A stretch of DNA of 64,000 bases from a virus. Lineage: Duplodnaviria > Heunggongvirae > Uroviricota > Caudoviricetes. The notes under the pieces were generated by a model. It was not told where the DNA came from and made no database searches. It saw only the letters and a list, made by a program, of their open reading frames with translations. A program made the position numbers and the translations under genes. Of this stretch, positions 7,080-59,124 are shown one piece after another. Position 1 is the stretch's first letter, and the number at the start of each line of letters is the position of its first letter. Where the stretch lies: the IMG/VR virus record IMGVR_UViG_3300032245_000624. One strand, given 5' to 3'.

Positions 7080-7124
7080 TATTGATCCACTTTTATGTAT
7101 TTAGTGGAGTAGCAATAAACGGTT

Positions 7125-10835: not shown

Positions 10836-10847
10836 TTTTTAACCTTT

Positions 10848-11738: not shown

Positions 11739-11773
11739 GTTCTATTCTCTTGTTTCATCTATTTATTGGGTTT

Positions 11774-12118
11774 TTAAAACCCCCAGATTATACTTGCGGT
11801 GTCAACGTAGCTTTTGGAAATTGCCGCGTTACCATCATAAGCATAGTAACTTGTGTTCAAATAAATGTTTCCGCCTGTCATGGTTATATTGCCTACCACA
11901 GTGGCACTGCCTGTTAAAGTAGCATTGCCAGTGTTTAGATTTGCTGTAGTGATATTTCCAATGATGCTGGCTGTGGTACTAACCAAATTACTACTGATCA
12001 AATTTGCTTCTACATTGATGTTACCAACAATCGCATAATCTGGATCTTGATATGCAAGGCCGCCCAGATCCGCATTAGTTGGGACTTGGTTGGGTAGATT
12101 TCCTATTAGGTTACTCAT
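11774..12118 (-). CDS. Small fibre-associated protein (114 aa)
   Basis: ORF rich in GN-I-T-x-N repeats, between two fibre genes. Confidence 0.45.
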   Translation of the reverse strand: MSNLIGNLPNQVPTNADLGGLAYQDPDYAIVGNINVEANLISSNLVSTTASIIGNITTANLNTGNATLTGSATVVGNITMTGGNIYLNTSYYAYDGNAAISKSYVDTASIIWGF

Positions 12119-12127
12119 TTTTTATCC

Positions 12128-15100: not shown

Positions 15101-18100
15101 TGTGGTAGAAATATTAGCAGTGGAAATAATCTTGCCAACTTCCAGTTGTCCTGCAGTCTTCAGATTTCCTGCAGAAATGTTTCCTGTGAAAGATGCACTA
15201 GACGGTAGTGCTAGATCTGAGAATGAAGCGTACCCGCCAGTGATATTGCCAACAGTGAGTGTGTTGGTTACACTAGCATTTCCTGACATCAGTACGTTGC
15301 CGGTCAGTGTTGGGGCATCTGTATTTGCTTTGGTTAGTATTGCACTGTTTGCCGCAGTGATGTTAGCACGTAGATCATTGATTTCAGTGCTTTGTCCGGC
15401 TGCATTGCTTTGCAATCCGCTGATAGCTAAATTAGCCGCAGTTATATTGGCATTAACAGTGTCAATTGCTGTGGACTGAGTGGCTGCATTTGAAGTTAGT
15501 GTGCTGATTACAATATTAGCCGCAGTGATATTGGCACGTAGATTAGCAACTTCAACATTGGCCGCTGTGATGTTTCCACGCAGGTTATCAATTTCAACAT
15601 TGGCCGCTGTGATGTTTCCACGCAACCCACTGATTTCTGAAGACAGTATGCCAGCGTTGCCATACAAGTTTACAATGCTTGCATTGGCTGCTGAGACATT
15701 TGCATTGATTATGGTAATTGCGTTGGCATTGTTTACAATGGCCGCATTTGCCGCTGCCACGTTGGCATTGGTTTCAGCAAAGCTACCACCCTCTAGGCTT
15801 TCCAGCGCAGAGTTGGCTAAAAAGAATAAAGCCTCAATGTTGCCGGTGATTGCTGCCAGGTTGCTGGCCACTGCTACATTAGCTGATTCAAGTTGACGAC
15901 TACCGTCACCAAATATCAAAGCCTGGGCAACTGTAATGTTGCTATCAGTGCTGATACTTCCTTTGACTTTTAAACTGTTTGGAGTTAGCCAACCATTGTC
16001 ATTTTGGTTGTAAATTAAATTAGCGTAAGAACCAGCGTCACCAACAAACACACCTGCACCAGATGCCAGTGTGGCAGTTGAAGCATTGTTTGCAAGAATA
16101 ATGTTTTTCTCAGCTGTTACAATTTGTTCAGTGTTGACTGTGGTAGTGTTACCGCCCACATATAAATTACCAGTTACGTAGAAATTATCGCTGACAATAG
16201 CATTGCCAGTTACCGATAGTCTACCTGTAACGTTTAGATCGTTTAGTGTTCCAACGCTGGTGATGTTAGGTTGTGCCGCAGTAATAACTGTACCTTGCAC
16301 ATTTGTAAAGGTACCTTTGGTTCCACTTACATTGCCAGTGCTCACATTGCCAGTTACATTCAATGTGGCTAGAGTACCAATGGCGGTGATATTTGTTTGG
16401 CTAGCATCAAGCAATGCGCCGCGAATATTTGTAAACGTACCAGTGGATCCACTGACGTTGCCGGTGAATACATTTCCTGTTACTGCCAGTGTTGCCAGGG
16501 TGCCTACACTGGTGATGTTTGGTTGAGCACTGGTTTGTATTAGGCCAGTAATATTACCAATCACTGCATTAGTAGCTGTGAGTGTACCACGAACAGTGCT
16601 GTTACCGCTGGTAAGATTTCCTGTGACATTGGCCAGTGGTGCAACAATACTTCCCAACACATATGGCACAGTAATGTTTCCAGCAAACTGAGCAGTATTG
16701 GCAGTGATATTTTGAATCACTGTCACATAGTTAGCTGTGGTTAGGTTGGCATTGATTTTGGAACTGGTAAATGTAGCAGTTGGATTGCTGGCTACAAAGT
16801 TACCAGTGACTGTGAGATTGCCACCTACATTTAATTGTGTGAGTGTACCAACACTGGTGATGTTTGGTTGAGCCGCTGTGGCCAATGTTCCAATTAGGTC
16901 AGTGAATCGTCCAATTGGAGCAATCACATTTCCAGTAGTACTAACGTTTCCGGTTACTGCCAATCCCAATAAGTTACCAACACTGGTGATATTTGGCTGA
17001 CCAGATGTGCGAATGATACCATATACTTTTAATGCAACCGCAGTGTCGGCAGTTACGTTTCCGCTGACAGTGAGGTTACCCAATGTACCAACACTGGTGA
17101 TGTTTGGTTGTGCGCTGGTTTGTAAAGTTCCAAACACATTGGTAAAGCGTCCGTTTGTGGCCGCAACATTGCTAGCAGATACATTGCCAGACACTGTGAC
17201 ATTGCCAGCAGTCACGCTAGGTGCTGTGACTGTGCCAGTGAAGGTCGGGTTTGCAACAGGAGCTCTTAATGCAATAGCCGCATTGGCCGCTGTGACATTG
17301 GCATTGACCTGAGCAATAGCCGCATTGGCTGCTGTGACGTTGGCATTAACCGCAGCCAAACTACCAATGCCTACTGCATTGATAGCCGCATTTGCCGCCG
17401 CAATGTTTGCACGTAGGCCACTGATTTCAGTTTCTTGTGTGGCAGCATTGGCGTTGAGTGTGTTCAATGATACAGCCTGCGTAGCCGCATTTGACTGTAA
17501 TTGAGATAGGGTGATAGCCTGCGCCGAAGCGTTGGCTATCAGTGTGGCAACATTAGATGAGAGGGTGGATATAACTGCGTTGGCCGCAGTAATGTTGGCA
17601 CGTAAACTGGTAGTAGCAGATTCAAGACTTGAAACATTGCCTTGAAGAATTGTAATCTTGGCATTTGCCGCCGCAACGTTTGCATTAACTGAAGTTAAAC
17701 TAGCAGGGTTGAGGTTGGCAATGATTGCGTTGGCCGCTGTGATATTGGCACGTAAACTGTTTATCTGAGTCTGTTGTGATAACGCATTTGAAAACAGAGT
17801 TGATACATTGGCATTGAGTGCATTGATCGATGATGCCTGCACACCAGCATTGGCAATCAAGTTATTGATTTGAGTACCTTGTGTGCCTGCATTGCTTTGT
17901 AGCGCAGCCACATTGGATCCGATGCCACTTAGATCTGGACCACCACCTATTAAGGCATTTGCGGCCGCAATGTTTGCACGTAGGCCAGCAATTTCAATTG
18001 ACTGGCTAGCGGCATTGGACAATAGACCATTGACCTGTCCGTTAATGGTATTTGCAGAATATAGAACACTGTTGTCTGGGAAACGCAATGCTCCGGACAC

Positions 18101-18553
18101 TGTCAACACGCCGCCAATCACTGCATTCTGAGCGACAGATAATGAATTTGTGGTGGTTGCACCAGCAACAGCCAAGTTGGTTAGAGAAGCATAGCTGGTA
18201 CCATAAATTTGTACATTTTGTATGGTACCACCGGTAATATCAGGATTGTTTGGATCAAATGAAACTGCTAGTATCGCAGAGTCTGTATAGTCTCGATCCG
18301 CGGCAGAGTTTGCTGCCATTGCCTGGCGAATCAAAGTTATTTCACCTTCGCCTACCGCGCCTAGTACGTCTTGAACTGCAATCTCTACATTGCCAACTCG
18401 TCCTGCTACACTATAAACAGCGATATTAGCGGCCAGCACGTTGCCGCTGTAGATCTCAGTGAAATTCTGATTTGTTTTATCGAATGCTGTGCGTAGGTCA
18501 TCACCATTGCCTGCGCCCGCGTCTGTGCCGATGTTAATTATTTGCTGAGACAT
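12128..18553 (-). CDS. Giant tail fibre protein (2141 aa) with tandem about 33 aa repeats and coiled-coil heptad arrays
   Basis: Nine copies of AQPNITSVGTLxxLxVTGN. Long runs of LRANITAANAxI. N-terminus GDDLRTAFDKTNQNFTEI. Confidence 0.75.
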   Translation of the reverse strand: MSQQIINIGTDAGAGNGDDLRTAFDKTNQNFTEIYSGNVLAANIAVYSVAGRVGNVEIAVQDVLGAVGEGEITLIRQAMAANSAADRDYTDSAILAVSFDPNNPDITGGTIQNVQIYGTSYASLTNLAVAGATTTNSLSVAQNAVIGGVLTVSGALRFPDNSVLYSANTINGQVNGLLSNAASQSIEIAGLRANIAAANALIGGGPDLSGIGSNVAALQSNAGTQGTQINNLIANAGVQASSINALNANVSTLFSNALSQQTQINSLRANITAANAIIANLNPASLTSVNANVAAANAKITILQGNVSSLESATTSLRANITAANAVISTLSSNVATLIANASAQAITLSQLQSNAATQAVSLNTLNANAATQETEISGLRANIAAANAAINAVGIGSLAAVNANVTAANAAIAQVNANVTAANAAIALRAPVANPTFTGTVTAPSVTAGNVTVSGNVSASNVAATNGRFTNVFGTLQTSAQPNITSVGTLGNLTVSGNVTADTAVALKVYGIIRTSGQPNITSVGNLLGLAVTGNVSTTGNVIAPIGRFTDLIGTLATAAQPNITSVGTLTQLNVGGNLTVTGNFVASNPTATFTSSKINANLTTANYVTVIQNITANTAQFAGNITVPYVLGSIVAPLANVTGNLTSGNSTVRGTLTATNAVIGNITGLIQTSAQPNITSVGTLATLAVTGNVFTGNVSGSTGTFTNIRGALLDASQTNITAIGTLATLNVTGNVSTGNVSGTKGTFTNVQGTVITAAQPNITSVGTLNDLNVTGRLSVTGNAIVSDNFYVTGNLYVGGNTTTVNTEQIVTAEKNIILANNASTATLASGAGVFVGDAGSYANLIYNQNDNGWLTPNSLKVKGSISTDSNITVAQALIFGDGSRQLESANVAVASNLAAITGNIEALFFLANSALESLEGGSFAETNANVAAANAAIVNNANAITIINANVSAANASIVNLYGNAGILSSEISGLRGNITAANVEIDNLRGNITAANVEVANLRANITAANIVISTLTSNAATQSTAIDTVNANITAANLAISGLQSNAAGQSTEINDLRANITAANSAILTKANTDAPTLTGNVLMSGNASVTNTLTVGNITGGYASFSDLALPSSASFTGNISAGNLKTAGQLEVGKIISTANISTTADVQASRGYFTNGVRGQVLDGNQPYINTVGTLVGLTMTGNITGVSWVLASGGATFTEVTGTLKTNAQPNINSVGTLTSLDVSGNIATTANLNVTGNIATGNLASTQIDASLVVANIVKTGNVYSTGNITATGNLSAGNVSGATGVFTNVQGTLLTTAQPNIISVGTLTTLSVTGNASAGNISTTGTTNTGNLVTAGDATVTGNVTAGNIAVGQLSASTISITGSGAVNLGSGSLTAGDVYGNLHATNVDISGTTPSTSTTTGAFTVVGGTGIGGNINIGGIANIGGNANITGTMVVLGNVTMGNANIGGTNGRTYIKSDVVFESDEFLSTQACIALFTTTTTTLNIGLAAQTVNIGSLSGNTTVFNALNVVGNIYGNLGNPTTLTGVGGNLKVDYTTTTANLNASYSNIGNIAVGSVTNPTWAQSTSATTGALQVLGGAGVTGNINVGYGTNANSWLIINNSVNSVNAYSGALQLRGGIGIQGNLNVLSAANISSTVESLSPTTFNTIPSGALRVWGGAGIAKNLNVGGDTYIKGGLIVDGTLTIPTIQQASLNNTPVGNAIPSSGNFTTLGTTALRPRSQTKLNFNFAYMQKLDPRLTFTRNSIGTRVDRSGNLVVMSANQPRFTHDYDGNPMGLIIEESRTNIFTYSSAFDNAAWSPIGSTVATTTVRGPEGSNNGVYFIQEDSNLNQHGFAVTTPTAITSGSSYTVSIFAKSGTRSQITMVFDGEGTASVFDLGTGNVASPGTNYQSSMELYANSWYRCSSTVTKTNTSGNVTISLAAAGSYTYTGDGAKGAFVYGMQLEQGTHPTSYIPTTVSTVTRDNEILTMTGSNFNGVYNTRGTILADAEVGYRLNSALLQNTRNVIVSFDDGTADNRVQLVAENKTAPSLLRGANLQVITGGVFQSNLGNPGNLATGDSGRVSAFYSLNYLGFSLNANAAITDNIANIPSGVTRLVIGSGPGANYLNGTISRIQYWPTVVSTSEIENLSRQ
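15560..15640 (-). repeat. Near-exact tandem DNA repeats inside the giant fibre gene (aacattggccgctgtgatgtttccacgca occurs twice). Many more degenerate repeats lie at 13.4-17.9 kb
   Basis: Direct repeat seen in the sequence. It corresponds to the coiled-coil ANITAANA protein repeats. Confidence 0.6.
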
Positions 18554-28063: not shown

Positions 28064-28149
28064 ATTTTTCTCCTTTGTGTGTATGTGTGTTAAACACGAG
28101 CTGTAGCTGTTGCTACAAAAATATTTATAAAGCCTACGGTAGTGGTAGA

Positions 28150-29160
28150 TTATTTTTGTTCAAGATATCTTGCCGAATTCAGTTGCTCTGCTAGTCTTCT
28201 TATAGCATCAGTTCTAGTTAGACGAGTTCGAGCAAGCTCTTGTGCATTGTTGATGATATAGGATTCCAGGGCCGGATCGTTTTTAATCATGTCCACATAA
28301 TCCACAAGATCCGACAAATCTGATTTGATAGGCACATAGTGTACCCAAGGCTTGAGCCATTGGTAAAAATCTTCTTGGTAGGTTCTTGGTTCCATGAAAA
28401 GAACTCTGGGTGCATGTAGTAGAATTTTTGTACGACCAGAATATCCCCAGCCTTCTAGGTCTATTAGGAATCTCCAACGCAACACCTGATCCTTGATACT
28501 GAGCCAGTCAGCTGGAGATTCTACAATTTTGCAATCGTAATCGTGCTGAGCAGACAGAGTACAGAGATCTTTTCTACGTTGAATGATATTGGAGCCACGC
28601 CAGCCCAGAGTGTCATGCAATGCAGGAGTATCCAGTTGCTGGAGCCAATTGGTCAGTTCATCAAAGCTGTCAATATGAGCGCCACCCCATGAATCATAAA
28701 CAAAATCAGGAATACACTCATTCCATTTACTTGATCGGGTTGATGCGGAAAACACTGGGTATTTGATGTCACGAACTGAGTTGTCCGTGACTAGATTGCA
28801 TTCAGGATCCTGATATATGCCAGTACTGGCCACATCATTGGTGTAGGATCGCCAGTCTTGATCATCGTAGCAGATCATTATCCAGGAAAAGTCTGGCACT
28901 AGATATATTTTCACAGCCTGTTCAATCATGAGCTTCATGCTGTCTATACGAGATAGGATAGTAGTATCTCTAGGCACAGGCACATGATACTCCAATTGGT
29001 CATTGATCTTTCTCACGCTGAAAAAGCAACTAGCATTAGGAATAACATGCGGCGGAAGGTCTGGGTCTGGTGTTTGTAGATATAAAAAATTATCTGGCGT
29101 GCCTGCCATTGCTTCTAGATTTTTATATCCTTGTTTAGTATCGGAATGCCATTTGAACAT
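28150..29160 (-). CDS. CAP10/GT90-family glycosyltransferase-like protein
   Basis: Segment WRFLIDLEGWGYSGRTKILLHAPRVLFMEP...HYVPIKSDLSDL resembles the Glyco_transf_90 (CAP10) core. Confidence 0.6.
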   Translation of the reverse strand: MFKWHSDTKQGYKNLEAMAGTPDNFLYLQTPDPDLPPHVIPNASCFFSVRKINDQLEYHVPVPRDTTILSRIDSMKLMIEQAVKIYLVPDFSWIMICYDDQDWRSYTNDVASTGIYQDPECNLVTDNSVRDIKYPVFSASTRSSKWNECIPDFVYDSWGGAHIDSFDELTNWLQQLDTPALHDTLGWRGSNIIQRRKDLCTLSAQHDYDCKIVESPADWLSIKDQVLRWRFLIDLEGWGYSGRTKILLHAPRVLFMEPRTYQEDFYQWLKPWVHYVPIKSDLSDLVDYVDMIKNDPALESYIINNAQELARTRLTRTDAIRRLAEQLNSARYLEQK

Positions 29161-37324: not shown

Positions 37325-37677
37325 GCACCAATGCTGAGGTGAGTGTAGAAGGCAGTGTGGAAGTAGTCAGTCATTGCGTCTGACTCATCAAAGTAAACAC
37401 GACCGCCTGCACGACCCGGAGCATTGTGCATGATCTCATTGATCTTGATCAGTGCTTCGCAAGCCACAGCATCTTTCCAGTGATCCTTGATCCAGTACTG
37501 GTTTACCTGACAGTAGCCATTGTGCAGATTTTCGCTGAAGTCTGCATCACCTTGCAGGATAGTAACATCAACTGACAAGGAGCCAGCACCTTTGCGAACG
37601 CCAAACTTCCAATTTGGAAAAGCGGCTTTGAGTTCGGTGCGGATTGCTTTAACGTCTTCTGCGGAAATGTATGCCAT
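37294..37677 (-). CDS. Hypothetical protein (127 aa)
   Basis: ORF directly downstream of promoter cassette copy A. Confidence 0.5.
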   Translation of the reverse strand: MAYISAEDVKAIRTELKAAFPNWKFGVRKGAGSLSVDVTILQGDADFSENLHNGYCQVNQYWIKDHWKDAVACEALIKINEIMHNAPGRAGGRVYFDESDAMTDYFHTAFYTHLSIGAWNKNYALVK

Positions 37678-37708
37678 TTGCTTGCTCCTTTTGTTTAACT
37701 TAGCCTAT

Positions 37709-37737
37709 AGTATAGCAAAATGGGTAGATTTGGTCAA
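37709..37737 (-). promoter_or_regulatory. Phage promoter cassette copy A: TTGACC-17-TATACT followed by the conserved leader ATAGGCTAAGTTAAACAAAAGGAG
   Basis: Plus ggtcaa at 37732-37737 and agtata at 37709-37714. The cassette is repeated near-identically at 46.06, 50.82, 53.65 and 53.98 kb. Confidence 0.7.
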
Positions 37738-37751
37738 CCGTTTTTTCCATA

Positions 37752-37780
37752 AAAAAACCCTTGATTTACAAGGGTTTTTT
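37752..37780 (-). terminator. Rho-independent terminator (AACCCUUGUAAAUCAAGGGUU plus UUUUUUA)
   Basis: Hairpin plus U-tract immediately upstream of promoter A. Confidence 0.65.
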
Positions 37781-37800
37781 GTAGTACTTTTGTTAACAGA

Positions 37801-37875
37801 TTAACGATTTGCAATGTACATGGTGATTTCAAAACCATAACGCATTTCTGTTGCACTTGGTGTGGTCCATTTCAT
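37801..37875 (-). CDS. pqqA: PqqA-like peptide (24 aa: MKWTTPSATEMRYGFEITMYIANR)
   Basis: RBS AAGGAG 7 nt upstream of the ATG. Matches the PqqA signature W-x-x-P...R-x-G-F-E-[VI]-T-x-Y, including the Glu and Tyr that form PQQ. Close to Pseudomonas-type PqqA. Confidence 0.5.
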   Translation of the reverse strand: MKWTTPSATEMRYGFEITMYIANR

Positions 37876-37984
37876 AATTTTCTCCTTGAATGATTAAATG
37901 ACATACTTAGGTGATGTCCTAGTATGTATCTCTATTGTACAGGCAAAAATGGTCAAATCATATCCAGGAAATCATGATTGTTGG

Positions 37985-38001
37985 CTAGTGAAATTCACTA
38001 G
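37985..38001 (-). promoter_or_regulatory. Perfect palindrome CTAGTGAA-A-TTCACTAG, upstream of a TTGACC -35-like box (37951-37956) ahead of the pqqA-like ORF
   Basis: 17 nt palindrome seen in the sequence. The loop is too small for an RNA hairpin, so it looks like an operator. Confidence 0.4.
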
Positions 38002-38003
38002 GC

Positions 38004-38201
38004 CTATTGTTCAGATCTGCCACTGGTGCAACTGTCGTTCCAAAGGCCCTGGGCTTGCTTCTTGTACTCGTAGAGCTCAAGTTCATTCTTGTACTCGTCT
38101 TCGGTCAGGCCATGCCATCCACAGCAGTAGCCTGTGGGACTGCGACCACAACCACATCGTCCAATGTCACTGGAGTTTTCTTTTACTCGCACCTGCATCA
38201 T
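38004..38201 (-). CDS. Small Cys-rich protein (65 aa, GRCGCGRSPTGYCCGWHG)
   Basis: ATGA overlap with the upstream gene at 38198-38201. Confidence 0.45.
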   Translation of the reverse strand: MMQVRVKENSSDIGRCGCGRSPTGYCCGWHGLTEDEYKNELELYEYKKQAQGLWNDSCTSGRSEQ

Positions 38202-38599
38202 TTTCCTTTCGTGTCTTGGGCTATTTTTTTATAGCCCGACCAGCTGGGATGAACCTTGTCTGGTTGTAATCCAGTAATGGGTACCACGGTGTCATTGTGC
38301 TGTTCAGCAACTATCTTGACCATGTTTTGAATGTCGGGCTTGATAGCTGGCATGATCCAGTACACTCGATCTGCTTGTACACGAGCTCGTAGTTGTTGCA
38401 ACTCCCATATGGTTCGTACACCAGCATGATCGTTTGATCCAAGGCTAATGATAACTGTTTGACCAGTTAGTTCTTTATTGGCATATCGTTGATTCCAATC
38501 GCGACTGTTGATACCGCCTTTGCTATAACTCACACACTCAGGACGAACCTGTGCTGTGCCTACTGCTATTGAATCTCCAAGTATCAAACAATCTAACAT
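38198..38599 (-). CDS. SGNH/GDSL-family hydrolase
   Basis: Blocks LGDSIAVG, GSND and DKVHPS. Confidence 0.55.
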   Translation of the reverse strand: MLDCLILGDSIAVGTAQVRPECVSYSKGGINSRDWNQRYANKELTGQTVIISLGSNDHAGVRTIWELQQLRARVQADRVYWIMPAIKPDIQNMVKIVAEQHNDTVVPITGLQPDKVHPSWSGYKKIAQDTKGK

Positions 38600-38610
38600 T
38601 TTGTCTCCGA

Positions 38611-39117
38611 TTAACTGTTAAGAACTTTGGCAACACTATTCATAACACTGGCAATGCGGCCAATGTCACGAAGCTGTTCCACAGTGTAGCCTTCTGTCTT
38701 CAATGTTTCGTAATGTGCTTTCACACAGAAGTGACATTTGCCCACAATACTTGCGGCAAGACTAAAAGCTTCAAAGTTTGACTTTGTAGTTCCGCCATGA
38801 CTTGCGATTGCGTTCATACGCAGACCTGCTGGCAGGCCTTTAAGAGCAGGATCATCAGCCATTTCAACATAAGGATACCATACATTGTTTTGGGCCATGA
38901 TCGAGGCCGCTGTCATTGCTGACTCTGCATGTACAGGTGCGTCTGCTAGTATGACTGATAGGATTTTACCGTTGCCAGTTGCAGCCAATGACGCTACAGC
39001 ACAACCCATAGCAACATCAGCATCCAATGTACTACGCAAAAGAACAGCATCAAGATTTAACTTGGTATCTTTTGCGTAGTCTGGCAACGCTGATTTAACT
39101 GCGTCGATGAATGCCAT
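38611..39117 (-). CDS. ahpD: AhpD-like carboxymuconolactone decarboxylase-family protein (alkylhydroperoxidase)
   Basis: CHFCVKAH CxxC-H signature. Adjacent to ahpC. Confidence 0.65.
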   Translation of the reverse strand: MAFIDAVKSALPDYAKDTKLNLDAVLLRSTLDADVAMGCAVASLAATGNGKILSVILADAPVHAESAMTAASIMAQNNVWYPYVEMADDPALKGLPAGLRMNAIASHGGTTKSNFEAFSLAASIVGKCHFCVKAHYETLKTEGYTVEQLRDIGRIASVMNSVAKVLNS

Positions 39118-39656
39118 TACAATGTCTCCCCGCCTACTGTACGGTTACAAGCACATAGTTCGCCAGTTTGTAGCGCATCCAACACACGAAGTGTTTCTTC
39201 TGGGCTACGACCAACGTTCAAGTTGTTCACAGTTACGTGCTGGATAACGTTGTCTGGATCAACGATGAATGTTGCGCGAAGTGCCGCACCTGCTGGAGCA
39301 TAGAATACGCCCAACTGTTCAATCAAACTCAACTCACCACGCTGTGTGTCAGCAAACTGGTTGTGTGTGATCTTCTTCAAGTCAGCGTGGGCATTTTGCC
39401 AGCTAACCTTACAGAACTCATTGTCAGTGCTACCTGTGAGCAATACTGCGTCACGGTCGGCAAAGTCGCCTGTTAGTTTGTCGTAGGCTACAATTTCTGT
39501 AGGGCAAACAAATGTAAAGTCCTTTGGATAGTAAACAATTACTTTCCATTTACCAGCAAAGCTCTCATCTGTGATTTCAAAGAAAGCATCTTCTGGTTGT
39601 CCAGGCTTGACACCTGTGACTGCGAATTTTTCTAATTTGTGTCCAACGGTTTTCAT
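39117..39656 (-). CDS. ahpC: Peroxiredoxin (AhpC/TSA family)
   Basis: Peroxidatic motif FTFVCPTEI. 179 aa. Confidence 0.85.
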   Translation of the reverse strand: MKTVGHKLEKFAVTGVKPGQPEDAFFEITDESFAGKWKVIVYYPKDFTFVCPTEIVAYDKLTGDFADRDAVLLTGSTDNEFCKVSWQNAHADLKKITHNQFADTQRGELSLIEQLGVFYAPAGAALRATFIVDPDNVIQHVTVNNLNVGRSPEETLRVLDALQTGELCACNRTVGGETL

Positions 39657-39832: not shown

Positions 39833-40477
39833 TCAACGTTTCATTAGGTCATTAACAAAGTCTAGCAACAACTGATGGTGATAGCCGTTGTGATAATAAG
39901 GCTTCATGTAGTTGTGCATGTCATACCACCACTGTTCACTCTCAGGATGGCACCCCATAATTCCAATACGGTCTTGGAATATGGCCATTGGGTCACCGTT
40001 TGCATAACGGGCAACAGTGTCAAACTTACTCTCATCACCTGCTAGAGCACAGCCATCGTAGAAGTACATACGCATGTCTTCCCCCTGCCAGTTCACTGTA
40101 CAGGCCTTGGCATGTGGACGGCGTGTGTCTGTGTTTGGTTGTGTGATATACTGTACAGCATCCACACCGTCTAGAATATCAAAATAGTGCGACCCTGCCC
40201 AATAGGCACCCATGCAAATGCCTAGATAGCGGCCGCCGTCTGATATGAAGTTTTTGATTCTTTGTTCGTGATGCTTCATTAGAAAATGATAGCTTTCGCT
40301 GTCCCCATCGCCACCAGGGAAAGCCACAATGTCCACATCGTCAAAGAAATTCTTTTCCATTTCCTGCTTGGTAAAGATTTTGAATTTGTAGTACTCGCTC
40401 AGTGCCTGCATCATTCCGTTTCCACACTGTACACTTGCACGAGGCTGATAGAAAAACAAAGCAATGGTAGGTTTCAT
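39833..40477 (-). CDS. Class I glutamine-amidotransferase-like (BPL_N-like) domain protein
   Basis: VAFPGGDG...GGRYLGICMGAYWAG. Confidence 0.45.
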   Translation of the reverse strand: MKPTIALFFYQPRASVQCGNGMMQALSEYYKFKIFTKQEMEKNFFDDVDIVAFPGGDGDSESYHFLMKHHEQRIKNFISDGGRYLGICMGAYWAGSHYFDILDGVDAVQYITQPNTDTRRPHAKACTVNWQGEDMRMYFYDGCALAGDESKFDTVARYANGDPMAIFQDRIGIMGCHPESEQWWYDMHNYMKPYYHNGYHHQLLLDFVNDLMKR

Positions 40478-40485
40478 AACAGTAT

Positions 40486-40782
40486 TTACTCAGCTCTGAT
40501 TTCGCGCTTTTTTAGTTTCATTCCTGCATAGGTTCCGCAGAATGCTCCTATCACAGCAGGTATAACCAACCAGTGATTTGTGGTGTAGCTGATAACTGCC
40601 ACACTGCCCAAGATATAACAAGCCACGCTCCAAAAACTGGCACCCAGCACGTTGTCATTTGCAACACATCGCAGATAGTAGGTGTACACTATGTCCAGCA
40701 AAAATATAGATAAAAACGTTACTAGGTAGTCCATATTGGTTTTCCTTGTATAAAGAAAGGCCCCGGGGGGCCTTTGTACCAA
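40486..40782 (-). CDS. Small polytopic membrane protein (GtrA-like size; likely starts at MDYLV)
   Basis: 3-4 predicted TM helices. Confidence 0.4.
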   Translation of the reverse strand: MVQRPPGAFLYTRKTNMDYLVTFLSIFLLDIVYTYYLRCVANDNVLGASFWSVACYILGSVAVISYTTNHWLVIPAVIGAFCGTYAGMKLKKREIRAE

Positions 40783-40793
40783 TCATATTATGA

Positions 40794-41348
40794 TTAGAAG
40801 CGGTGAATATAACCAACCTTGGTGATGTTCTGCTCGCTATCGCCACGTTGACGATCGTAACCTAGGTACACAGTACTGGTCTTGTTGATATCGTAACCAA
40901 TCTTGGCACGCCAGGTACGTGTGGTATCGTTTTGACTATCTTTGAAAGCGTCTTGGAAACGATAGCCTAGTCCTGCGCTAAAGCCTAGACCCAGTCCAGC
41001 TGTAACACCTGGCTCAACTGAGTAGTAGCTATAACCTGCGCTACCACTAGAGTAATTCTCGCCGACTGCTACACGAGTGTAAACGCCAACTGGTCCAACT
41101 GGCACTGCGCCAGTAACACCTGCTTCATAGCGAGTTGCTAATGCGTTGGTGCCTTCTGTGCGATAGTTCTTGACCACGATATCGCCAGCAAAGCTGTTGT
41201 TGATTGCTTGCTTGACGCCTAGCTCGTAAACACGTTGATCAGCGGTACCATTAACGCCATTGGCGTTTTGACCTTCTAATCGTACTTCAGCGGCTGACAC
41301 GCCCAATGCGGCCATGGCTAGTAGAGTTGCTAATGCAAATTTTTTCAT
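40794..41348 (-). CDS. Outer-membrane beta-barrel protein (Ail/Lom/OmpX-like)
   Basis: Signal peptide. Alternating amphipathic strands. C-terminal YIHRF ends in Phe. Confidence 0.6.
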   Translation of the reverse strand: MKKFALATLLAMAALGVSAAEVRLEGQNANGVNGTADQRVYELGVKQAINNSFAGDIVVKNYRTEGTNALATRYEAGVTGAVPVGPVGVYTRVAVGENYSSGSAGYSYYSVEPGVTAGLGLGFSAGLGYRFQDAFKDSQNDTTRTWRAKIGYDINKTSTVYLGYDRQRGDSEQNITKVGYIHRF

Positions 41349-41370
41349 TTAATTTCCTTTATTGAAAAAC

Positions 41371-41422
41371 AGTGATTGAGATCACTAGAGCAAGTATATA
41401 TGTTGTGCCCTAGTAAAGTCAA
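41371..41422 (-). promoter_or_regulatory. Promoter TTGACT-18-TATACT with the palindrome AGTGAT-TGAG-ATCACT (41371-41386) between -10 and the RBS
   Basis: Plus agtcaa at 41417-41422 and agtata at 41393-41398. Perfect 6 bp arms. Confidence 0.5.
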
Positions 41423-41424
41423 AA

Positions 41425-41452
41425 GAAAGACAACCGAAGTTGTCTTGCCTGC
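41425..41452 (-). terminator. Rho-independent terminator (AAGACAACUUCGGUUGUCUU plus UCUUUUG)
   Basis: Hairpin plus U-tract downstream of the GT1 gene. Confidence 0.65.
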
Positions 41453-41526
41453 TGGTTACGAGTTCCAGCGCCACTCCATCTTTGTGGTCGATTAAAATTA
41501 TTTATCTTTAAGTGGGTAGTTAATTG

Positions 41527-42531
41527 TTACGACTTTGTTACAAGATTGTCTCGGAAGATTTCCCAGGCCCGTTCCCAACTCCATCTGGCACTGCCTTCCC
41601 AAACACGTTGTCGGTCCAGCATGAGTGCATCTTTCACAGCCTGCTTTAGGTCATCATTCAAACAGCCAGTAACACCTTCGTCCACAACATCCAGCGGCCC
41701 CTGTACAGGAAAAGCCGCTACTGGTGTACCGCATGCCATGGCTTCGACCATCACAAGGCCAAATGTTTCCCATTGGCTAGGAAACACAAATACTTCTGCA
41801 TTGGCATAGTAACGTGCTAGGTCCACACCTGTTTTATAGCCGGTGAAATGCACATCAGGGTATTGCTTGCGATAGGTCTCGAGCATAGGGCCATCGCCTA
41901 CCATGACTTTGAGATATCCAGGGTAGTCTAATTCAAAGAACTTTTCAAGATTCTTTTCTTTGCTCACACGACTCACGCACAGCAGATATCTGCTCACAGT
42001 TTCTACTCTGTGGGTAGGATTAAAAATGTCACGGTCAACACCACGAGTCCACGGAATCACTTCGCCGTCGAATCCATGTGCTTGTAATTCATCAACCATG
42101 GAGTCAGTGGTGGTCAACACCTTGCCCGAGTGCTTGTGGAACCAGCGCACTAGAGGCCAAGTAAGAGCCTCAGGTATTCCAAACAGCTTTCTAATTCCTT
42201 CTGGAAACTTAGTATGATAAGCAGTGTTGTAGCGATAACCGTGTTGGTCAAGATATTGTCTAGCACACAGACCCAAAGGACCTTCTGTGGCGATATGGAT
42301 ATGATCCGGATTGATCTCCTCAAATATCTTGCCCACCGTGCGTTTCCTGGTAAGGGTAATCTTGACTTCGTTGTAGCGAGGGCAATCAACATAGCGGAAC
42401 CGCCCGGGATCAAGATATACAACACGATAGTTGTCGCGAATCGCAAGCGCCTCAATATTTTTGTAGGTCGTAACCACACCATTGATCTGATCCTTTAGGT
42501 TATCTGTTACGATTAAGATTGTTTTTGACAT
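41527..42531 (-). CDS. Group 1 (GT4-like) glycosyltransferase
   Basis: EAMACGTPVAAFPVQGPLDVVDEGVTGCL matches E-x7-E. Confidence 0.75.
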   Translation of the reverse strand: MSKTILIVTDNLKDQINGVVTTYKNIEALAIRDNYRVVYLDPGRFRYVDCPRYNEVKITLTRKRTVGKIFEEINPDHIHIATEGPLGLCARQYLDQHGYRYNTAYHTKFPEGIRKLFGIPEALTWPLVRWFHKHSGKVLTTTDSMVDELQAHGFDGEVIPWTRGVDRDIFNPTHRVETVSRYLLCVSRVSKEKNLEKFFELDYPGYLKVMVGDGPMLETYRKQYPDVHFTGYKTGVDLARYYANAEVFVFPSQWETFGLVMVEAMACGTPVAAFPVQGPLDVVDEGVTGCLNDDLKQAVKDALMLDRQRVWEGSARWSWERAWEIFRDNLVTKS

Positions 42532-54088: not shown

Positions 54089-55531
54089 CTATTTTTTAGA
54101 TCTGCCGGATTTCATGTTAGCACACCAGTGGTACATTTTTGCCCGTTCTCCACTGGCACGTTTGGCCTTGGCTCTGAGTGATGTTACGGATCCGTCACAG
54201 CTGGCGCCTGCACGGCTTACTCTGCCCGGACGACTCTTGCCTTTGACCTTGCCGTCATGGAAGTTTTCCCACACACGCTCTTCTTCACCGCGGTGCTTGT
54301 CCCAGAAGCCTTTGCCTGCATCTGTTTGATCCCAACTACGATGTATCTCATAGCCCAGTTTCTTAACAAAGTCGTACATGGTACGAGCAATGCCTTGCCC
54401 TTGGTACTTGTCATCCACACGCAGATCCTGTGGGTCTAGTTCTTTACCATCACCGATGTTGAATTCAACGTAGCCTAGTACTTTGTTACCCCAGTCGTTT
54501 AGTGCTTCAACCTTGAGCTTGTATGATTCTTTGCTTACTCGTATGTTCAGCCCTTCAAACTCAACCATCTTGGATTCTGCCAAGCCTCGTCCTAGTCTGC
54601 TTAGTTCGTATATAACTATGTCACCATTGTCGGCACGGAAGGCTCGATATCCCCAAGCACGAGCATAACGCTGTACCAGTCTGTCGTACAGTTTAGCACG
54701 GCTTTCTGGATTGAAGTGTTCAACATTGTCTGCGTCCATGTCCACTTGTTTGCTGGCCGAGAAACTTAGTCGTTGTGGTTTGTATTTTTTGATGTATTTT
54801 TGTATAGCATCTAGTACTGTAGCAAAAATACGCTGTGCATCGCCCTCGCCTGTGACTTCTTGACTGTTGTTTCTATGGAACTCAACTTGCGTGACTTCTT
54901 CGCCTTCGTCACCATACTCCTGATTAAACATGATGTTGAGGTATGTGCCGTCTGGTAATTTTGCGTTTACATCAACGTCACCGTAGTCTGATTTTTCCCA
55001 CTTGCCCTTGTAAGGGTTGTCAAAGGCTTCTGCTAGTTCTTCATCATCTAAAAATGTATCTGCAAATGATTTGCACAGATCACGTATGCTACCATTTTCA
55101 GTTTCCATGATGTTGAAGTCACGATGTTCTTCTTCTTGAGTAGGATCAATATAACCACAGTAGACTTTCTTTACGCCCACTTGGTCAATTAGTTCTGTAC
55201 AGTCAATACCAAAACGTTCGCTCATGTGTTCACTGCATGGACTACATGTTGTGATAATAATACTGCCCTCAGGTATATCGCCATGTGCCTCTTGGTACTT
55301 TTCAATAGCCACACGCTCGGCATGCTTGCGAGTGTCTGTGGCATCATCAAATGTGTTTAGTCCTGCTATAATGCGATTGTCAGGGTCTACCACTGCCGCG
55401 GCCACCATGCCATAAAGTCCTTCACGAGGATCTTTCATGCCTTGCACAACCATGTGACACAACCGAACTAGAATTCGATCTAGTTTTTTATAGTTGTGTA
55501 TCTCTGTGTTGCTGATGTCGCTGTAGCGCAT
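54089..55531 (-). CDS. Fusion protein: N-terminal cytidine/dCMP-deaminase-like zinc domain and C-terminal GNAT acetyltransferase-like domain
   Basis: HAERVAIEKY...TTCSPCSEHM (H-A-E ... PCxxC). C-terminal DKYQGQGIARTMYDFVKKLGY (GNAT motif A). Confidence 0.65.
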   Translation of the reverse strand: MRYSDISNTEIHNYKKLDRILVRLCHMVVQGMKDPREGLYGMVAAAVVDPDNRIIAGLNTFDDATDTRKHAERVAIEKYQEAHGDIPEGSIIITTCSPCSEHMSERFGIDCTELIDQVGVKKVYCGYIDPTQEEEHRDFNIMETENGSIRDLCKSFADTFLDDEELAEAFDNPYKGKWEKSDYGDVDVNAKLPDGTYLNIMFNQEYGDEGEEVTQVEFHRNNSQEVTGEGDAQRIFATVLDAIQKYIKKYKPQRLSFSASKQVDMDADNVEHFNPESRAKLYDRLVQRYARAWGYRAFRADNGDIVIYELSRLGRGLAESKMVEFEGLNIRVSKESYKLKVEALNDWGNKVLGYVEFNIGDGKELDPQDLRVDDKYQGQGIARTMYDFVKKLGYEIHRSWDQTDAGKGFWDKHRGEEERVWENFHDGKVKGKSRPGRVSRAGASCDGSVTSLRAKAKRASGERAKMYHWCANMKSGRSKK

Positions 55532-57458: not shown

Positions 57459-57835
57459 TCTATAATCTCCGGGTATTCTTTTCCATATAGTTTCATTAGG
57501 TAACCTGCTTCTGCATCTGCTTCACGTTCTAGTTTACTGCCAGGAGGACTATGTCCATGAATGCGACCTTGGGTGCCTTGCTTGACGTGCTTTAGTTCAT
57601 GCGCCACTGTGCGTAGTATATCAATTAGATTTCTATTGCCAGTGTACACATACATGGTATTCTCTTGATGATTGAACCAACCAGTATGGTGCATGTCTTC
57701 TGTTTCTTTTTCAGAACTAAAAGTGATTGTGGGCAACGGACCACGAATGTTTTCTTTTTGGTATACCCATTCAATGAAATGAGCTATCCTGTCTTCGTGG
57801 TTGTTGGGGGCATTGATAATTTCTTCTATTAACAT
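57455..57835 (-). CDS. Hypothetical protein with an HExxH motif (possible small metallopeptidase)
   Basis: TVAHELKHVKQG. Confidence 0.4.
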   Translation of the reverse strand: MLIEEIINAPNNHEDRIAHFIEWVYQKENIRGPLPTITFSSEKETEDMHHTGWFNHQENTMYVYTGNRNLIDILRTVAHELKHVKQGTQGRIHGHSPPGSKLEREADAEAGYLMKLYGKEYPEIIE

Positions 57836-59124
57836 TATTGCCCCTGTTGATTTTGTGAAAGCTGTTTTAGTGCATCTCTAAGACCATCTATTACCACATT
57901 CAAACTGTCTTCATCTGCTTGGTATTTAATGCCAATGCCGCCTTTGGATCTCCAGCTCACAATGTTGGTTCCACGATCGTCAATCAGGATGTTTGGAGTA
58001 CCGTCAGGCTGAGTGGCGTGTTTTTCTTTTCGTGACGTAATGATAATGTCGCGTGGTTGAATACTGAGATTCTGTTGCAACCAGATACGTTTGTGTTCTT
58101 CGCTGTTTGCATGATCACCACGCAGTGGACTTGAGCAGATATTGTAGTGACCAAATAATTTTGTCACTGTGCTTACCAGTGCATCTGTGGTGGGAAACTT
58201 TGGCAAGCGAGAAAAGAAATCTGTTCCTATCATACGATTCAATGTAGGATCAGTCTTGGCAGAAGGAATATTTCTATAATTGTAGCGGCCACTACCATCT
58301 GGTGGAACACCTGCTAGCTTGGCGTACTCTGAGAAGAAGTCGCACAGCACACCGTCCATGTCTAAAAAGATTTCTGGTTTGCTTTTGTTTTCTGGAGGTG
58401 ATGGTAAGCCAGGAGTGTCATCATCTTCGTCTATGCTGAGGTCTCTGTCAGTTAACCCTGTTAGGTGTATACGAATCTTGTCAAGATAACCTTGGGCACG
58501 TAGCAGTTTAAATGCTAGATTCTCAGGACTAAATTCGCCTGCTGTTTCTAGCCCTGTTTTACGCATGGCCTTGACATCGCTCCACACAGCAGTTGCACGA
58601 TCAAGATCTTGACTTATGATTGCTTGATCAATTCTATGCTTCATGTTACTGTACTTTTCACGCACATCCATGTCATCAATGTCTGCACGTTGGCGCTTGG
58701 GCTTGCTTACCCAACGGTCTTCTTTGACACTGTAGATACCCATGCTGTGATGTGCTTGCTCAACGTCCTGGACATAAAGCTCAACATCAAAACCACGCAC
58801 CTTGATATCATGTGTGTCATTGTACTGATACTTTTTGGCATCAAACAGCTGACGTAATTCATCCTCGTGTGCATCAGGAATCATAACCACAAGATGTAGA
58901 TCAATGTCACTGCTGGGTGTATAAGTGTAAGCGGCATTGCTACCCGAAATAGTAATATCCACTAGATCGTAGTTGTCAATGCCCAGAAATTCTTTGAAGT
59001 GATCTGCAATACGCAACAATGCGCGGCGCACTTCTGTTTGCAGACGCTCGTTTTTCCAAAGAGCTGGGTTTAGCTCATCGTGAAACTGTACCGCCTGACT
59101 TAGTTCAAATTCGTTTAATCGCAT
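57835..59124 (-). CDS. Fusion protein: Pol-beta-like nucleotidyltransferase domain plus HAD-family 5'(3')-deoxyribonucleotidase/phosphatase domain
   Basis: GSNAAYTYTPSSDIDLHLVV (NTase G-S...D-x-D) and IFLDMDGVLCDF (HAD DxDGxL). Confidence 0.6.
   Translation of the reverse strand: MRLNEFELSQAVQFHDELNPALWKNERLQTEVRRALLRIADHFKEFLGIDNYDLVDITISGSNAAYTYTPSSDIDLHLVVMIPDAHEDELRQLFDAKKYQYNDTHDIKVRGFDVELYVQDVEQAHHSMGIYSVKEDRWVSKPKRQRADIDDMDVREKYSNMKHRIDQAIISQDLDRATAVWSDVKAMRKTGLETAGEFSPENLAFKLLRAQGYLDKIRIHLTGLTDRDLSIDEDDDTPGLPSPPENKSKPEIFLDMDGVLCDFFSEYAKLAGVPPDGSGRYNYRNIPSAKTDPTLNRMIGTDFFSRLPKFPTTDALVSTVTKLFGHYNICSSPLRGDHANSEEHKRIWLQQNLSIQPRDIIITSRKEKHATQPDGTPNILIDDRGTNIVSWRSKGGIGIKYQADEDSLNVVIDGLRDALKQLSQNQQGQ

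Follow-up and report, generated by a model that had tools for sequence, protein, structure and literature searches.

A solitary phage pqqA gene as a candidate source of precursor peptide for host PQQ synthesis

A PqqA-family gene among phage genes

Abundant aquatic methylotrophs (OM43, LD28 and their relatives) are powered by methanol dehydrogenase and other periplasmic dehydrogenases that use PQQ as cofactor, and a phage that carries only the gene for its peptide precursor, PqqA, raises the question of what such a gene could do in an infected cell. The original prediction had described a gene of this kind, including the Glu-x3-Tyr signature of PqqA, in the stretch of DNA analysed here (64,000 nucleotides, referred to as the window), and we recovered the same reading frame with identical coordinates, codons and translation:

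37801..37875, minus strand: pqqA coding sequence, 24 codons, ATG start, TAA stop; translation MKWTTPSATEMRYGFEITMYIANR

Two profile searches, of which the one with Pfam PqqA had been suggested with that prediction, placed the product above both curated cutoffs, with 35.7 bits for Pfam PF08042 (cutoff 21.1, E = 7.9e-9) and 36.7 bits for the TIGR02107 equivalog (cutoff 20, E = 2.5e-9), the latter matched at full length (model positions 1-21 of 21). Since some 1,300 ORFs of 20 aa or more are to be expected across the window (from 101 per 5 kb), the expectation after correction is still ~1e-5. Judged by these two curated HMMs, the ORF is a bona fide member of the PqqA family. Members of the family are short ribosomal peptides of about 20-40 aa whose conserved Glu-x3-Tyr pair is turned into the skeleton of PQQ; the window peptide has the pair at Glu16 and Tyr20 and shares with bacterial PqqA the 24-aa length, the W-x-x-P leader and the R-x-G-F-E-[VI]-T-x-Y core. 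Its nearest bacterial counterpart, identical at 22 of 24 positions, comes from a betaproteobacterial MAG and precedes confirmed pqqB, pqqC and pqqD genes, with an ORF in the pqqE position that lacked HMM confirmation.

What distinguishes the window copy from bacterial pqqA is that it is phage-encoded and lies among phage and accessory genes, not immediately 5' of pqqB-C-D-E. As the original prediction had stated, the window holds none of these genes, a tblastn search with betaproteobacterial references being blank for pqqB, pqqC, pqqD and pqqE at E <= 1e-3. PqqB-E likewise had no match in 152 viral pqqA loci or in 160 ligase- or AhpD-anchored loci, in contrast to bacterial loci, where PqqB adjoins pqqA in 97 of 120. 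Such adjacency is typical of PqqA and not strictly defining, because solitary bacterial copies exist: one methylotroph has pqqA in five copies, of which three are solitary, with transcript levels that follow the rate of PQQ synthesis (PMC9851590), and one bacterial chromosome in our set (locus L474) carries a solitary tandem pqqA pair.

The window belongs to a T4-like phage, probably a jumbo phage. Viral genes lie on both sides of pqqA and on the same strand (virion and tail proteins, rIIA/rIIB, GP88 and a DNA ligase), an arrangement that qualifies it as a candidate auxiliary metabolic gene (AMG). The nearest cultured relatives of a window virion protein are cyanomyoviruses at ~40% identity, syntenic relatives are found on IMG/VR contigs of 355-374 kb, and a megablast of the pqqA region against GenBank phages gave no match. 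A beta-type tmRNA and the Burkholderiales-type C-terminus of the peptide (IANR) point to a betaproteobacterial host, and from the same two features we infer that the host has pqqBCDE. The phage could, instead, need extra PQQ for a PQQ-dependent dehydrogenase of its own encoded elsewhere in its genome, a proposal made for a Lake Baikal virus in which methanol dehydrogenase has been reported together with PqqA (PMC7678222); the genomes of the relatives (~355-374 kb) also fall mostly outside a 64-kb window. However, no PQQ-dehydrogenase domain was found among the window ORFs of at least 429 aa, the 35-44 kb methylotroph phages that also carry pqqA have little room for such a gene, and their records annotate none near it. 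We regard this explanation as very improbable.

Upstream of pqqA lies an island of accessory genes:

38004..39656, minus strand: accessory-gene island upstream of pqqA (Pfam)
39117-39656, minus strand: ahpC (Pfam)
38611-39117, minus strand: ahpD-like CMD gene (Pfam)
38198-38599, minus strand: GDSL/SGNH-like hydrolase (sub-threshold Pfam match, 24.8 bits against 32.9)
38004-38201, minus strand: Cys-rich 65-aa ORF

The last two are the flanking genes named in the original prediction, and the hydrolase keeps its name with a score below the Pfam threshold. An ahpC-ahpD(-SGNH) cassette with pqqA as its last gene is present in the window and in three further loci (L245, L274 and L118), and in 12-14 of 80 AhpD-anchored loci pqqA is no more than 4 kb away, on the same strand in every case; in L028, pqqA and a peroxiredoxin gene are neighbours independently of this cassette. 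These arrangements could reflect a module in which pqqA acts with ahpC-ahpD and PQQ serves as an antioxidant or redox buffer, not as dehydrogenase fuel. Most ahpC-ahpD islands, however, lack pqqA, which led us to reject a strict coupling of the two; among the first 122 loci with viral pqqA, only two (L118 and L028) have a peroxiredoxin nearby, and the gene order varies as in an accessory-gene hot spot. A redox role of this kind appears improbable, and it would be a variant of precursor supply to the host pathway, since host enzymes must still convert the peptide to PQQ. In this lineage pqqA is sporadic (2 of 80 ligase-anchored loci, in addition to the AhpD-anchored loci above) and therefore dispensable; most relatives do without it, as is the case for a homologue of a host metabolic gene that is unneeded for virion production or replication.

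Signals around the gene

In the window, pqqA is a self-contained unit composed of upstream boxes, a TACAAT hexamer, a 5' hairpin, the AAGGAG motif, the ORF and a strong terminator:

37985..38001, no strand: 17-nt palindrome CTAGTGAA(A/T)TTCACTAG, 8+1+8 nt, unique in the window
37970..37976, minus strand: CATGATT, the form taken in the window by the conserved upstream box [AC]ATG[AG]TTTT
37951..37956, minus strand: TTGACC box, separated by 11 nt from TACAAT and by 17 nt from a poor hexamer, AGAGAT; unreported by the promoter scan
37934..37939, minus strand: probable -10 box TACAAT (TATAAT in 13 of 16 aligned related loci)
37901..37927, minus strand: 5' leader hairpin, ACATACT (37927-37921), 13-nt loop, AGTATGT (37907-37901)
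37882..37887, minus strand: Shine-Dalgarno motif AAGGAG, 6 nt 5' of the ATG, unpaired in the predicted transcript fold
37751..37780, minus strand: intrinsic terminator, 12-bp stem, 5-nt loop and U-run, AAAAAACCCUUG-UAAAU-CAAGGGUUUUUU plus U
37709..37737, minus strand: strong sigma-70-type promoter of the next gene, TTGACC-17-TATACT, 10/12 matches, TG present

The canonical ribosome-binding site of the original prediction is thus in place, and an SD-like motif stands no more than 20 nt from the start in 117 of 122 viral pqqA copies. The strong terminator, also predicted, folds at -16.3 kcal/mol (z = -3.4), with none of 200 shuffles as stable. Related copies that were inspected have a G+C-rich 3' hairpin too, mostly followed by a T-rich stretch, and a hairpin with a T-run was scored 3' of the gene in 63 of 122 viral copies. 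The promoter of the next gene forms the downstream boundary of the unit; in most related loci inspected a TTGAC-type box comes right after the terminator, in some with a TATA-type -10 box ~17 nt further on.

At the 5' end, the leader hairpin begins 6 nt past the -10 box, at about the expected transcript start. In 19 related loci a hairpin occupies the equivalent position, its stem taking three sequences (ACATACT/AGTATGT, ATAAGTACT/AGTACTTAT and GTTTATAAA/TTTATAAAC), and compensatory changes are seen in the stem; this covariation was read from a registration by hand, since loops of 3 to 13 nt put MAFFT/RNAalifold out of register. Viral leaders are more structured than their shuffles (mean z = -1.1, n = 157) and bacterial leaders are similar, so that a structured 5' leader is common to the window copy and bacterial pqqA genes. 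An Rfam search of the leader matched no family and returned only terminator-like hits below threshold. Since the promoter scan found no -35 element matching TACAAT at 16-18 nt, it is the conservation of this hexamer that suggests a promoter function. The TTGACC box to which the original prediction had drawn attention is present in sequence but implausible as a -35 element, its spacing to TACAAT being too short and a 17-nt spacer facing only AGAGAT. A sigma-54 promoter, considered by eye, was discarded because the GG/GC spacing does not fit.

The predicted 17-nt palindrome is real. Its right arm, TTCACTAG, contains CACTAG (37990-37985), which is box 1 of a bipartite upstream element, and while the full palindrome was found only in this window, the box under the right arm recurs in related leaders, where TTCAC/GTGAA repeats and the arrangement CAYTAG-N-[AC]ATG[AG]T are found. 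Of 129 unique viral leaders, 76 contain the [AC]ATG[AG]TTTT box, compared with a frequency of 3.6% in background windows; the position of the box peaks at -80 to -100 relative to the ATG. These motifs do not belong to the general signals of this phage, as the leader motif GATACATACT occurs once in the window and TTCAC/GTGAA repeats elsewhere are at chance level. Two bacterial pqqABCDE operons are preceded by a sequence similar to the palindrome region, ATCATGAAAATCACTAGC, and a similar box is absent from the solitary bacterial copies in L474; an origin of the leader from the host is thus only partly supported.

Occurrence and conservation in other phages

Further viral and bacterial pqqA loci were found with degenerate DNA patterns. 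The motif was present on at least 120 IMG/VR contigs, every one of which proved to be a true short PqqA ORF, and orphan pqqA genes were retrieved from 171 viral loci, with pqqB-E near none of them; a separate count gave 69 orphan loci, perhaps with a few among them that had gone unchecked for pqqB-E. Ten GenBank phage records carry the gene (four of Melnitz, then Venkman, MEP301, MEP401, MEP402, P19250A and one uncultured phage), and these phages, all but the last of them cultured phages of methylotrophs, are of differing morphotypes, with the gene mostly unannotated. Matches in "Acinetobacter phage MD-2021a" were discarded as mislabelled bacterial chromosome with fur, ppk and pqqBCDE. PHROGs holds no family for PqqA; with only 72-75 nt, the gene is missed by gene callers and by viral protein family collections.

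The 113 distinct nucleotide versions of viral pqqA encode 51 peptides, synonymous variation being dominant, and entropy at codon positions 1, 2 and 3 is 0.31, 0.25 and 0.89, a pattern from which we conclude that the coding sequence is under purifying selection. The 73 distinct peptides that were collected are viral, except perhaps for a few taken from metagenome loci; all match PF08042, and the residues W, P, R, G, F, E and Y do not vary among them. Because the core residues were a requirement in the main scan for viral motifs, only a scan of 32 loci found by the leader half alone is unbiased for Glu and Tyr, and all 32 keep E-V-T-M-Y followed by four residues and the stop.

These data bear on the possibility that pqqA is a neutral passenger, a host gene picked up repeatedly together with its promoter at almost no cost and of no benefit to the phage. 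Its sporadic presence within the lineage, its site in a variable island beside other host-like genes and the similarity of the leader to sequences upstream of some bacterial pqqA genes would all agree with this. However, the gene has been acquired or kept in unrelated types of phage, including every matching GenBank methylotroph phage, and streamlined phages of 35-44 kb retain it; the constraint over the 113 nucleotide variants is strong, and the RBS, hairpin and terminator are likewise kept. We therefore consider a neutral passenger unlikely.

A second proposal of the original prediction was that the peptide is a decoy for PqqD/PqqE. As a decoy or inhibitor it would bind or flood host PqqD/PqqE without yielding PQQ and stop cofactor synthesis. 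Binding is plausible in that the leader motifs recognised by PqqD (W-x-x-P and R-x-G-F) are retained, and the processing enzymes were not found in the window. For a decoy, however, the cross-link residues, their spacing and the C-terminal tail would be superfluous, yet Glu and Tyr are invariant and the copies selected by the leader half keep both the core and the tail without exception; many phage peptides are, moreover, identical to peptides of bacterial pqqABCDE operons. To cut an obligate methylotroph host off from its energy supply would presumably also lower phage yield. A decoy is accordingly disfavoured, and we give it very little chance.

A proposed supply of precursor to host PQQ synthesis

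It is likely, in our assessment, that the ORF is a functional phage pqqA, an AMG that feeds the host PqqBCDE pathway with PQQ precursor. This reading is backed by the recurrence of the gene in unrelated methylotroph phages, by purifying selection and by the retention of the cross-link residues, and on the same comparative evidence the boosting of host PQQ synthesis put forward in the original prediction is supported. PqqA is the sole component of the pathway consumed one-for-one per PQQ, PqqB, PqqC, PqqD and PqqE acting as catalysts or chaperone. The phage would encode only this 24-residue substrate, on a short, probably stable monocistronic mRNA, in a unit that brings a -10 box of its own, a hairpin at the 5' terminus, a strong RBS and, at the end, an intrinsic terminator. 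In an infected cell, pre-existing host PqqD, PqqE, PqqB and PqqC, together with a protease, could turn the phage peptide into PQQ. Periplasmic quinoprotein dehydrogenases (for methanol, alcohol or glucose) would thereby stay active or become more so, which may keep the energy supply going as host transcription falls. That the gene is expressed, that host enzymes process its product and that the phage gains from it are inferred.

Cyanophages with psbA offer a parallel, for there the phage carries only the rapidly turned-over component of a host energy system (D1) and the rest comes from the host. The analogy is functional only, as psbA has no sequence or structural kinship to pqqA, and PqqA is a substrate destroyed to make a cofactor, in contrast to D1, a subunit that is replaced. 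A precursor-only gene would be an unusually economical way for a phage to support host energy metabolism. Over-expression of pqq genes has brought only a modest gain of PQQ in some bacteria (PMC9851590, PMC7936290), and PqqA supply is thus not always limiting.

More tentatively, the ~300-nt pqqA unit, from the upstream boxes through its 23-24 codons to the terminator, may be the smallest and most widespread AMG of phages of methylotrophic betaproteobacteria, exchanged among unrelated phages with a host-type leader; this we hold to be possible and somewhat doubtful. If true, PQQ-dependent energy metabolism in infected cells would in general be limited by the supply of precursor peptide, and much of the pqqA in aquatic metagenomes would belong to phages. 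Cultured phage-host pairs make the supply of precursor directly testable, and the conserved leader provides a handle on the regulation of pqqA, itself poorly understood.

Viral pqqA as such is a kind of gene already known, PqqA having been reported in 2020 as an AMG of a Lake Baikal methylotroph virus, VP_266 (Coutinho et al. 2020, PMC7678222); what the present analysis adds is that the gene is widespread and under-annotated and has a conserved leader. Like the window, VP_266, which is from freshwater, has PqqA on a T4-like viral contig, where it was read as boosting host PQQ (PMC7678222). The Baikal virus has 35% GC and a methanol dehydrogenase, whereas the window has 42-46% GC and no large quinoprotein in 64 kb, and the window differs further in the IANR-type C-terminus of its PqqA and in its lineage, whose contigs measure 355-374 kb. 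Phage P19250A was said to lack these genes (PMC7678222); contrary to that statement, we found an unannotated pqqA ORF in its genome.

The pqqA gene and its orphan status

The minus strand from 37500 to 38300 reads exactly as the original prediction described it, with the ORF, its AAGGAG ribosome-binding site, its start and its stop:

37875-37801, minus strand: pqqA ORF of 24 codons, MKWTTPSATEMRYGFEITMYIANR, by sequence reading and ORF call; ATG at 37875, TAA at 37803-37801
37887-37882, minus strand: Shine-Dalgarno AAGGAG, followed by six bases and then the ATG

When PqqA membership was checked with Pfam PF08042, as had been proposed, the peptide scored 35.7 bits (E = 7.9e-9), above the gathering score of 21.1, and the NCBIfam equivalog TIGR02107 gave 36.7 bits against 20 with all 21 model positions covered. 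The window is expected to contain some 1,300 ORFs of 20 aa or more (101 per 5 kb), and since the E-value is still small after correction for this number, the match lies far beyond chance. A search of PHROGs with the peptide returned no family.

PqqB-E queries were taken from L201, the bacterial locus whose peptide is most similar (22 of 24 residues identical), in which PqqB, PqqC and PqqD were confirmed by NCBIfam and the fourth query was the ORF in the pqqE position, without HMM confirmation. At E <= 1e-3, tblastn with the four queries found nothing, whether in the window, among 152 viral pqqA loci or among 160 viral loci anchored on the window's ligase or AhpD-like protein, bearing out the claim that the window lacks pqqB-E. 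The identical search on 120 bacterial loci was positive for PqqB in 97, PqqC in 84, PqqD in 78 and PqqE in 70. The possibility that the peptide provides PQQ for a quinoprotein of the virus itself is less likely, as no PQQ-dehydrogenase domain was found among window ORFs of at least 429 aa. Overall, the observation of an orphan pqqA is confirmed, and its main interpretation as a gene serving host PQQ synthesis is supported.

Recurrence in phages, bacteria and metagenomes

Earlier papers have described viral pqqA: a T4-like virus of methylotrophs from Lake Baikal was reported to carry PqqA, with the proposal that it boosts PQQ (Coutinho et al. 2020, PMC7678222), and pqqA was listed among virus-encoded phosphorus-cycling genes in a 2026 survey (PMC13188868). 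The present analysis extends this by finding the gene in no fewer than 171 viral loci, always as an orphan, by showing that cultured methylotroph phages carry it, for the most part without annotation, and by describing a conserved leader whose 5' hairpin covaries. Searching GenBank phages by tblastn with the peptide matched 12 records, 10 of them true phages, namely the Methylophilales phages Melnitz (four isolates), Venkman, MEP301, MEP401 and MEP402, Methylophilaceae phage P19250A and one uncultured Caudoviricetes. Three of the ORFs are located as follows:

KX815270.1 (L002), 28085-28150: pqqA ORF of P19250A, unannotated
MT375522.1 (L558), 9977-10042: pqqA ORF of Venkman, unannotated, antisense to all neighbours in a 212-nt gap
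MZ577095.1 (L001), 74882-74953: pqqA ORF of Melnitz-1, with only an opposite-strand ORF annotated under the match

P19250A thus carries the gene contrary to PMC7678222, which stated that these genes are absent from it; in the Melnitz paper, PQQ appears solely as a supplement of the medium. The record labelled 'Acinetobacter phage MD-2021a' (L557, CAKLQF020000010.1) proved to be bacterial chromosome at the locus (fur, ppk, pqqBCDE), and a second Acinetobacter-phage-labelled record with the same peptide match, CAKLQH020000055.1, was set aside too. In IMG/VR, a degenerate DNA pattern for E-x-R-x-G-F-E-[VI]-T-x-Y gave at least 120 matches, and every one listed is a true M-W-T-x-P...Y-x-x-N-[KR]-stop ORF of 23-25 codons. 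All 73 distinct PqqA peptides collected pass Pfam PqqA.

The C-terminal half GFEITMYIANR had at least 120 matches in bacterial genomes, and the named records listed were nearly all Betaproteobacteria (Burkholderiales, Rhodocyclales), the exceptions listed being a few unclassified Pseudomonadota MAGs and three MAGs labelled Bifidobacterium. The small-phage-type peptide pattern had at least 120 matches in metagenomes; among those listed, 7 were bacterial pqqABCDE operons with peptides identical to the phage ones, and at least 69 had 1.5 kb or more of downstream sequence with no pqqB-E detected. Two or more ORFs were shared with IMG/VR pqqA contigs by 39 of the 72 non-operon metagenome loci of at least 3 kb, compared to none of the 7 operon loci. 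Some orphan copies are bacterial: in L474 a tandem pqqA pair (3256-3525) lies on a bacterial chromosome with ClpB, PheT and phosphoglucomutase. Tandem pairs separated by about 130 nt (1.6 kb in L426) and with no pqqB-E nearby were seen in loci L474, L464, L479, L482, L521 and L426, and in L426 a phage-type leader precedes both copies.

Leader, transcript and the proposed mechanism

The signals around the ORF are the following:

37985-38001: 17-nt palindrome, by sequence scan
37990-37985, minus strand: CACTAG, the right arm of the palindrome, 5' of CATGATT
37976-37970, minus strand: CATGATT, the window's upstream box
37927-37901, minus strand: 5' leader hairpin, ACATACT (37927-37921), 13-nt loop, AGTATGT (37907-37901)
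37780-37751, minus strand: intrinsic terminator, AAAAAACCCUUG-UAAAU-CAAGGGUUUUUU + U, -16.3 kcal/mol, z = -3.4, 0 of 200 shuffles as stable
after the terminator: next promoter in the window, TTGACC-17-TATACT, by promoter scan

The fold of 37780-37751 agrees with the strong terminator that had been predicted, and the palindrome is present as described, its sequence occurring just once in the window. The TTGACC box was also found (37956-37951), but it lies 11 nt from the -10 box and was not called by the promoter scan. When the flanks of 19 loci of the window's lineage were compared, one common plan emerged: TTCAC/GTGAA-type repeats and a AATGATTTT-like box upstream, a TATAAT box about 20 nt beyond it (TACAAT in the window, 37939-37934), a hairpin starting 4-6 bases after the TATAAT box, then AAGGAG and the ORF. 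A G+C-rich hairpin ends each inspected copy, with a T-rich stretch after most, and a TTGAC-type box follows the terminator in most of the 19 loci, in some with a TATA-type -10 about 17 nt on.

At the position of the window's 5' hairpin, other loci have the stems ATAAGTACT/AGTACTTAT or GTTTATAAA/TTTATAAAC with loops of 3-13 nt, so that the three versions differ by two pairs changed on both sides. The mean best stem was 7.3 bp compared to 5.96 in shuffled sequences (shuffle maximum 6.94, n=300). Since GATACATACT was not found elsewhere in the window, the hairpin is not a general signal of this phage. In the predicted fold of the ~180-nt transcript (z = -3.2), the 5' hairpin and the terminator form and the Shine-Dalgarno stays open. 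Hairpins at the extreme 5' end protect E. coli mRNAs from decay, and the pqqA mRNA may be stabilised by its hairpin in this way. A structured leader is a design general to pqqA, with mean z against shuffles of -1.1 in viral copies (n=157), -1.2 in Burkholderiales genomes (n=116) and -2.4 in bacterial operons (n=7).

Further upstream, the box [AC]ATG[AG][AT]T[AT]T occurs in 76 of 129 unique viral leaders compared to 3.6% of background windows, with a position peak at -80 to -100 from the ATG. ATCATGAAAATCACTAGC lies upstream of pqqA in two bacterial pqqABCDE operons (L478 and L481), and no box of this type was found before the solitary bacterial copies of L474. Because its right arm CACTAG is part of the recurring upstream boxes, the palindrome overlaps a conserved putative cis element; the full palindrome is specific to the window. 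Counterparts of the leader (37901-38001, minus strand) in loci L118, L030, L245, L274 and L325-L402 have CAYTAG-N-[AC]ATG[AG]TTTT, a -10 that lacks a -35, and a 5' hairpin whose stem changes are compensatory; small methylotroph phages of unrelated types also have this kind of box.

In a methylotroph that makes PQQ, pqqA is present in five copies, of which three are solitary; their transcript levels follow how fast PQQ is synthesised, and reuse of PqqB-D was suggested (PMC9851590). The most likely mechanism, which we consider probable, is that the phage PqqA peptide, made from a compact, probably stable mRNA, would be supplied as precursor to host PqqBCDE.

Selection, the accessory island and the phage

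For the last 22 codons, 113 different nucleotide versions were counted, together coding for 51 peptides, with mean entropies of 0.31, 0.25 and 0.89 by codon position and a ratio of synonymous to non-synonymous codon differences of about 2:1, in a scan set that required part of the core residues. Carriage of pqqA as a neutral passenger is less likely than precursor supply. A second scan specified the leader half only, and all 32 newly fetched loci run on as E-V-T-M-Y, four residues and a stop. This retention of the Glu-x3-Tyr pair counts against a decoy that occupies the host proteins without cross-link chemistry, which is also the less likely reading.

The gene pqqA is last in a cassette with ahpC, ahpD-like, a GDSL/SGNH-like hydrolase and sometimes a Cys-rich 65-aa ORF in the window and in loci L245, L274 and L118; in L274 the cassette is on the other side of the ligase, with pqqA still last. 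Both flanking genes named in the original prediction, the Cys-rich ORF and the hydrolase, are thus seen here.

38611-39656, minus strand: ahpC/ahpD-like peroxiredoxin pair, with counterparts in loci L325-L404
38004-38201, minus strand: Cys-rich 65-aa ORF, CGCGRSPTGYCCGWHG...
39833-42531, minus strand: further host-like island genes, variably present in relatives

At least 597 AhpD relatives were found in IMG/VR, the best 80 at 91-98% identity to the window's protein and several on contigs of 340-357 kb; among cultured phages the only homologue was in one Ralstonia phage (51%). The pair looks like a core accessory function of this uncultured lineage. A redox module joining pqqA to ahpCD is possible but less likely than precursor supply. 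In 12-14 of the loci of the best 80 AhpD relatives pqqA lies within 4 kb; the strand is the same each time, and the gene order varies. A peroxiredoxin was near pqqA in only 2 of the first 122 viral pqqA loci (L118 and L028). We read the neighbourhood as a variable accessory-gene island with pqqA as a frequent passenger. The Cys-rich ORF had no match in Pfam and PHROG searches; its 52% conservation in L274 and its occurrence in 4 of the best 80 AhpD-anchored loci make it probable that this is a genuine small gene belonging to the island. The products of 39833-42531 are BPL_N/glutamine-amidotransferase-like (214 aa), small membrane (98 aa), porin-like (184 aa) and GT4 glycosyltransferase (334 aa) proteins.

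The window (GC 42-46%), with all long ORFs on the minus strand, encodes virion structural and tail proteins (phrog_5838, phrog_5939), rIIA, rIIB, a GP88-domain protein, an ATP-dependent DNA ligase and a dCMP deaminase fusion.

1596-18553, minus strand: three very large ORFs, 1827, 1236 and 2141 aa
44273-44743, minus strand: permuted (two-piece) tmRNA, betaproteobacterial type; Rfam beta_tmRNA 86.5 bits (gathering score 84), tmRNA_permuted 112 bits
47309-50315, minus strand: adjoining rIIA-like (725 aa) and rIIB-like (281 aa) genes, typical of T4-like phages
54089-55531 and 57835-59124, minus strand: dCMP-deaminase/GNAT acetyltransferase fusion (480 aa) and a 429-aa protein

The largest virion protein shows ~40% identity to T4-like cyanomyovirus proteins, with no closer match among cultured phages. 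A 101-kb metagenome scaffold in ENA encodes an identical ligase, and its annotation has no call for the 24-codon ORF; among at least 598 ligase relatives in IMG/VR, some on contigs of 355-374 kb, the closest is the syntenic L245 (80% ligase identity). The 1236-aa protein is virion structural, the 2141-aa protein matches tail and minor-head proteins, and the only domains of the 1827-aa protein are Ig-like and beta-propeller. The 429-aa protein matches a 5'-nucleotidase (NT5C) domain weakly, with a score below threshold, and, with the deaminase fusion, suggests nucleotide-pool remodelling. The tag peptide of the tmRNA predicted by ARAGORN is 32 aa long and looks unusual.
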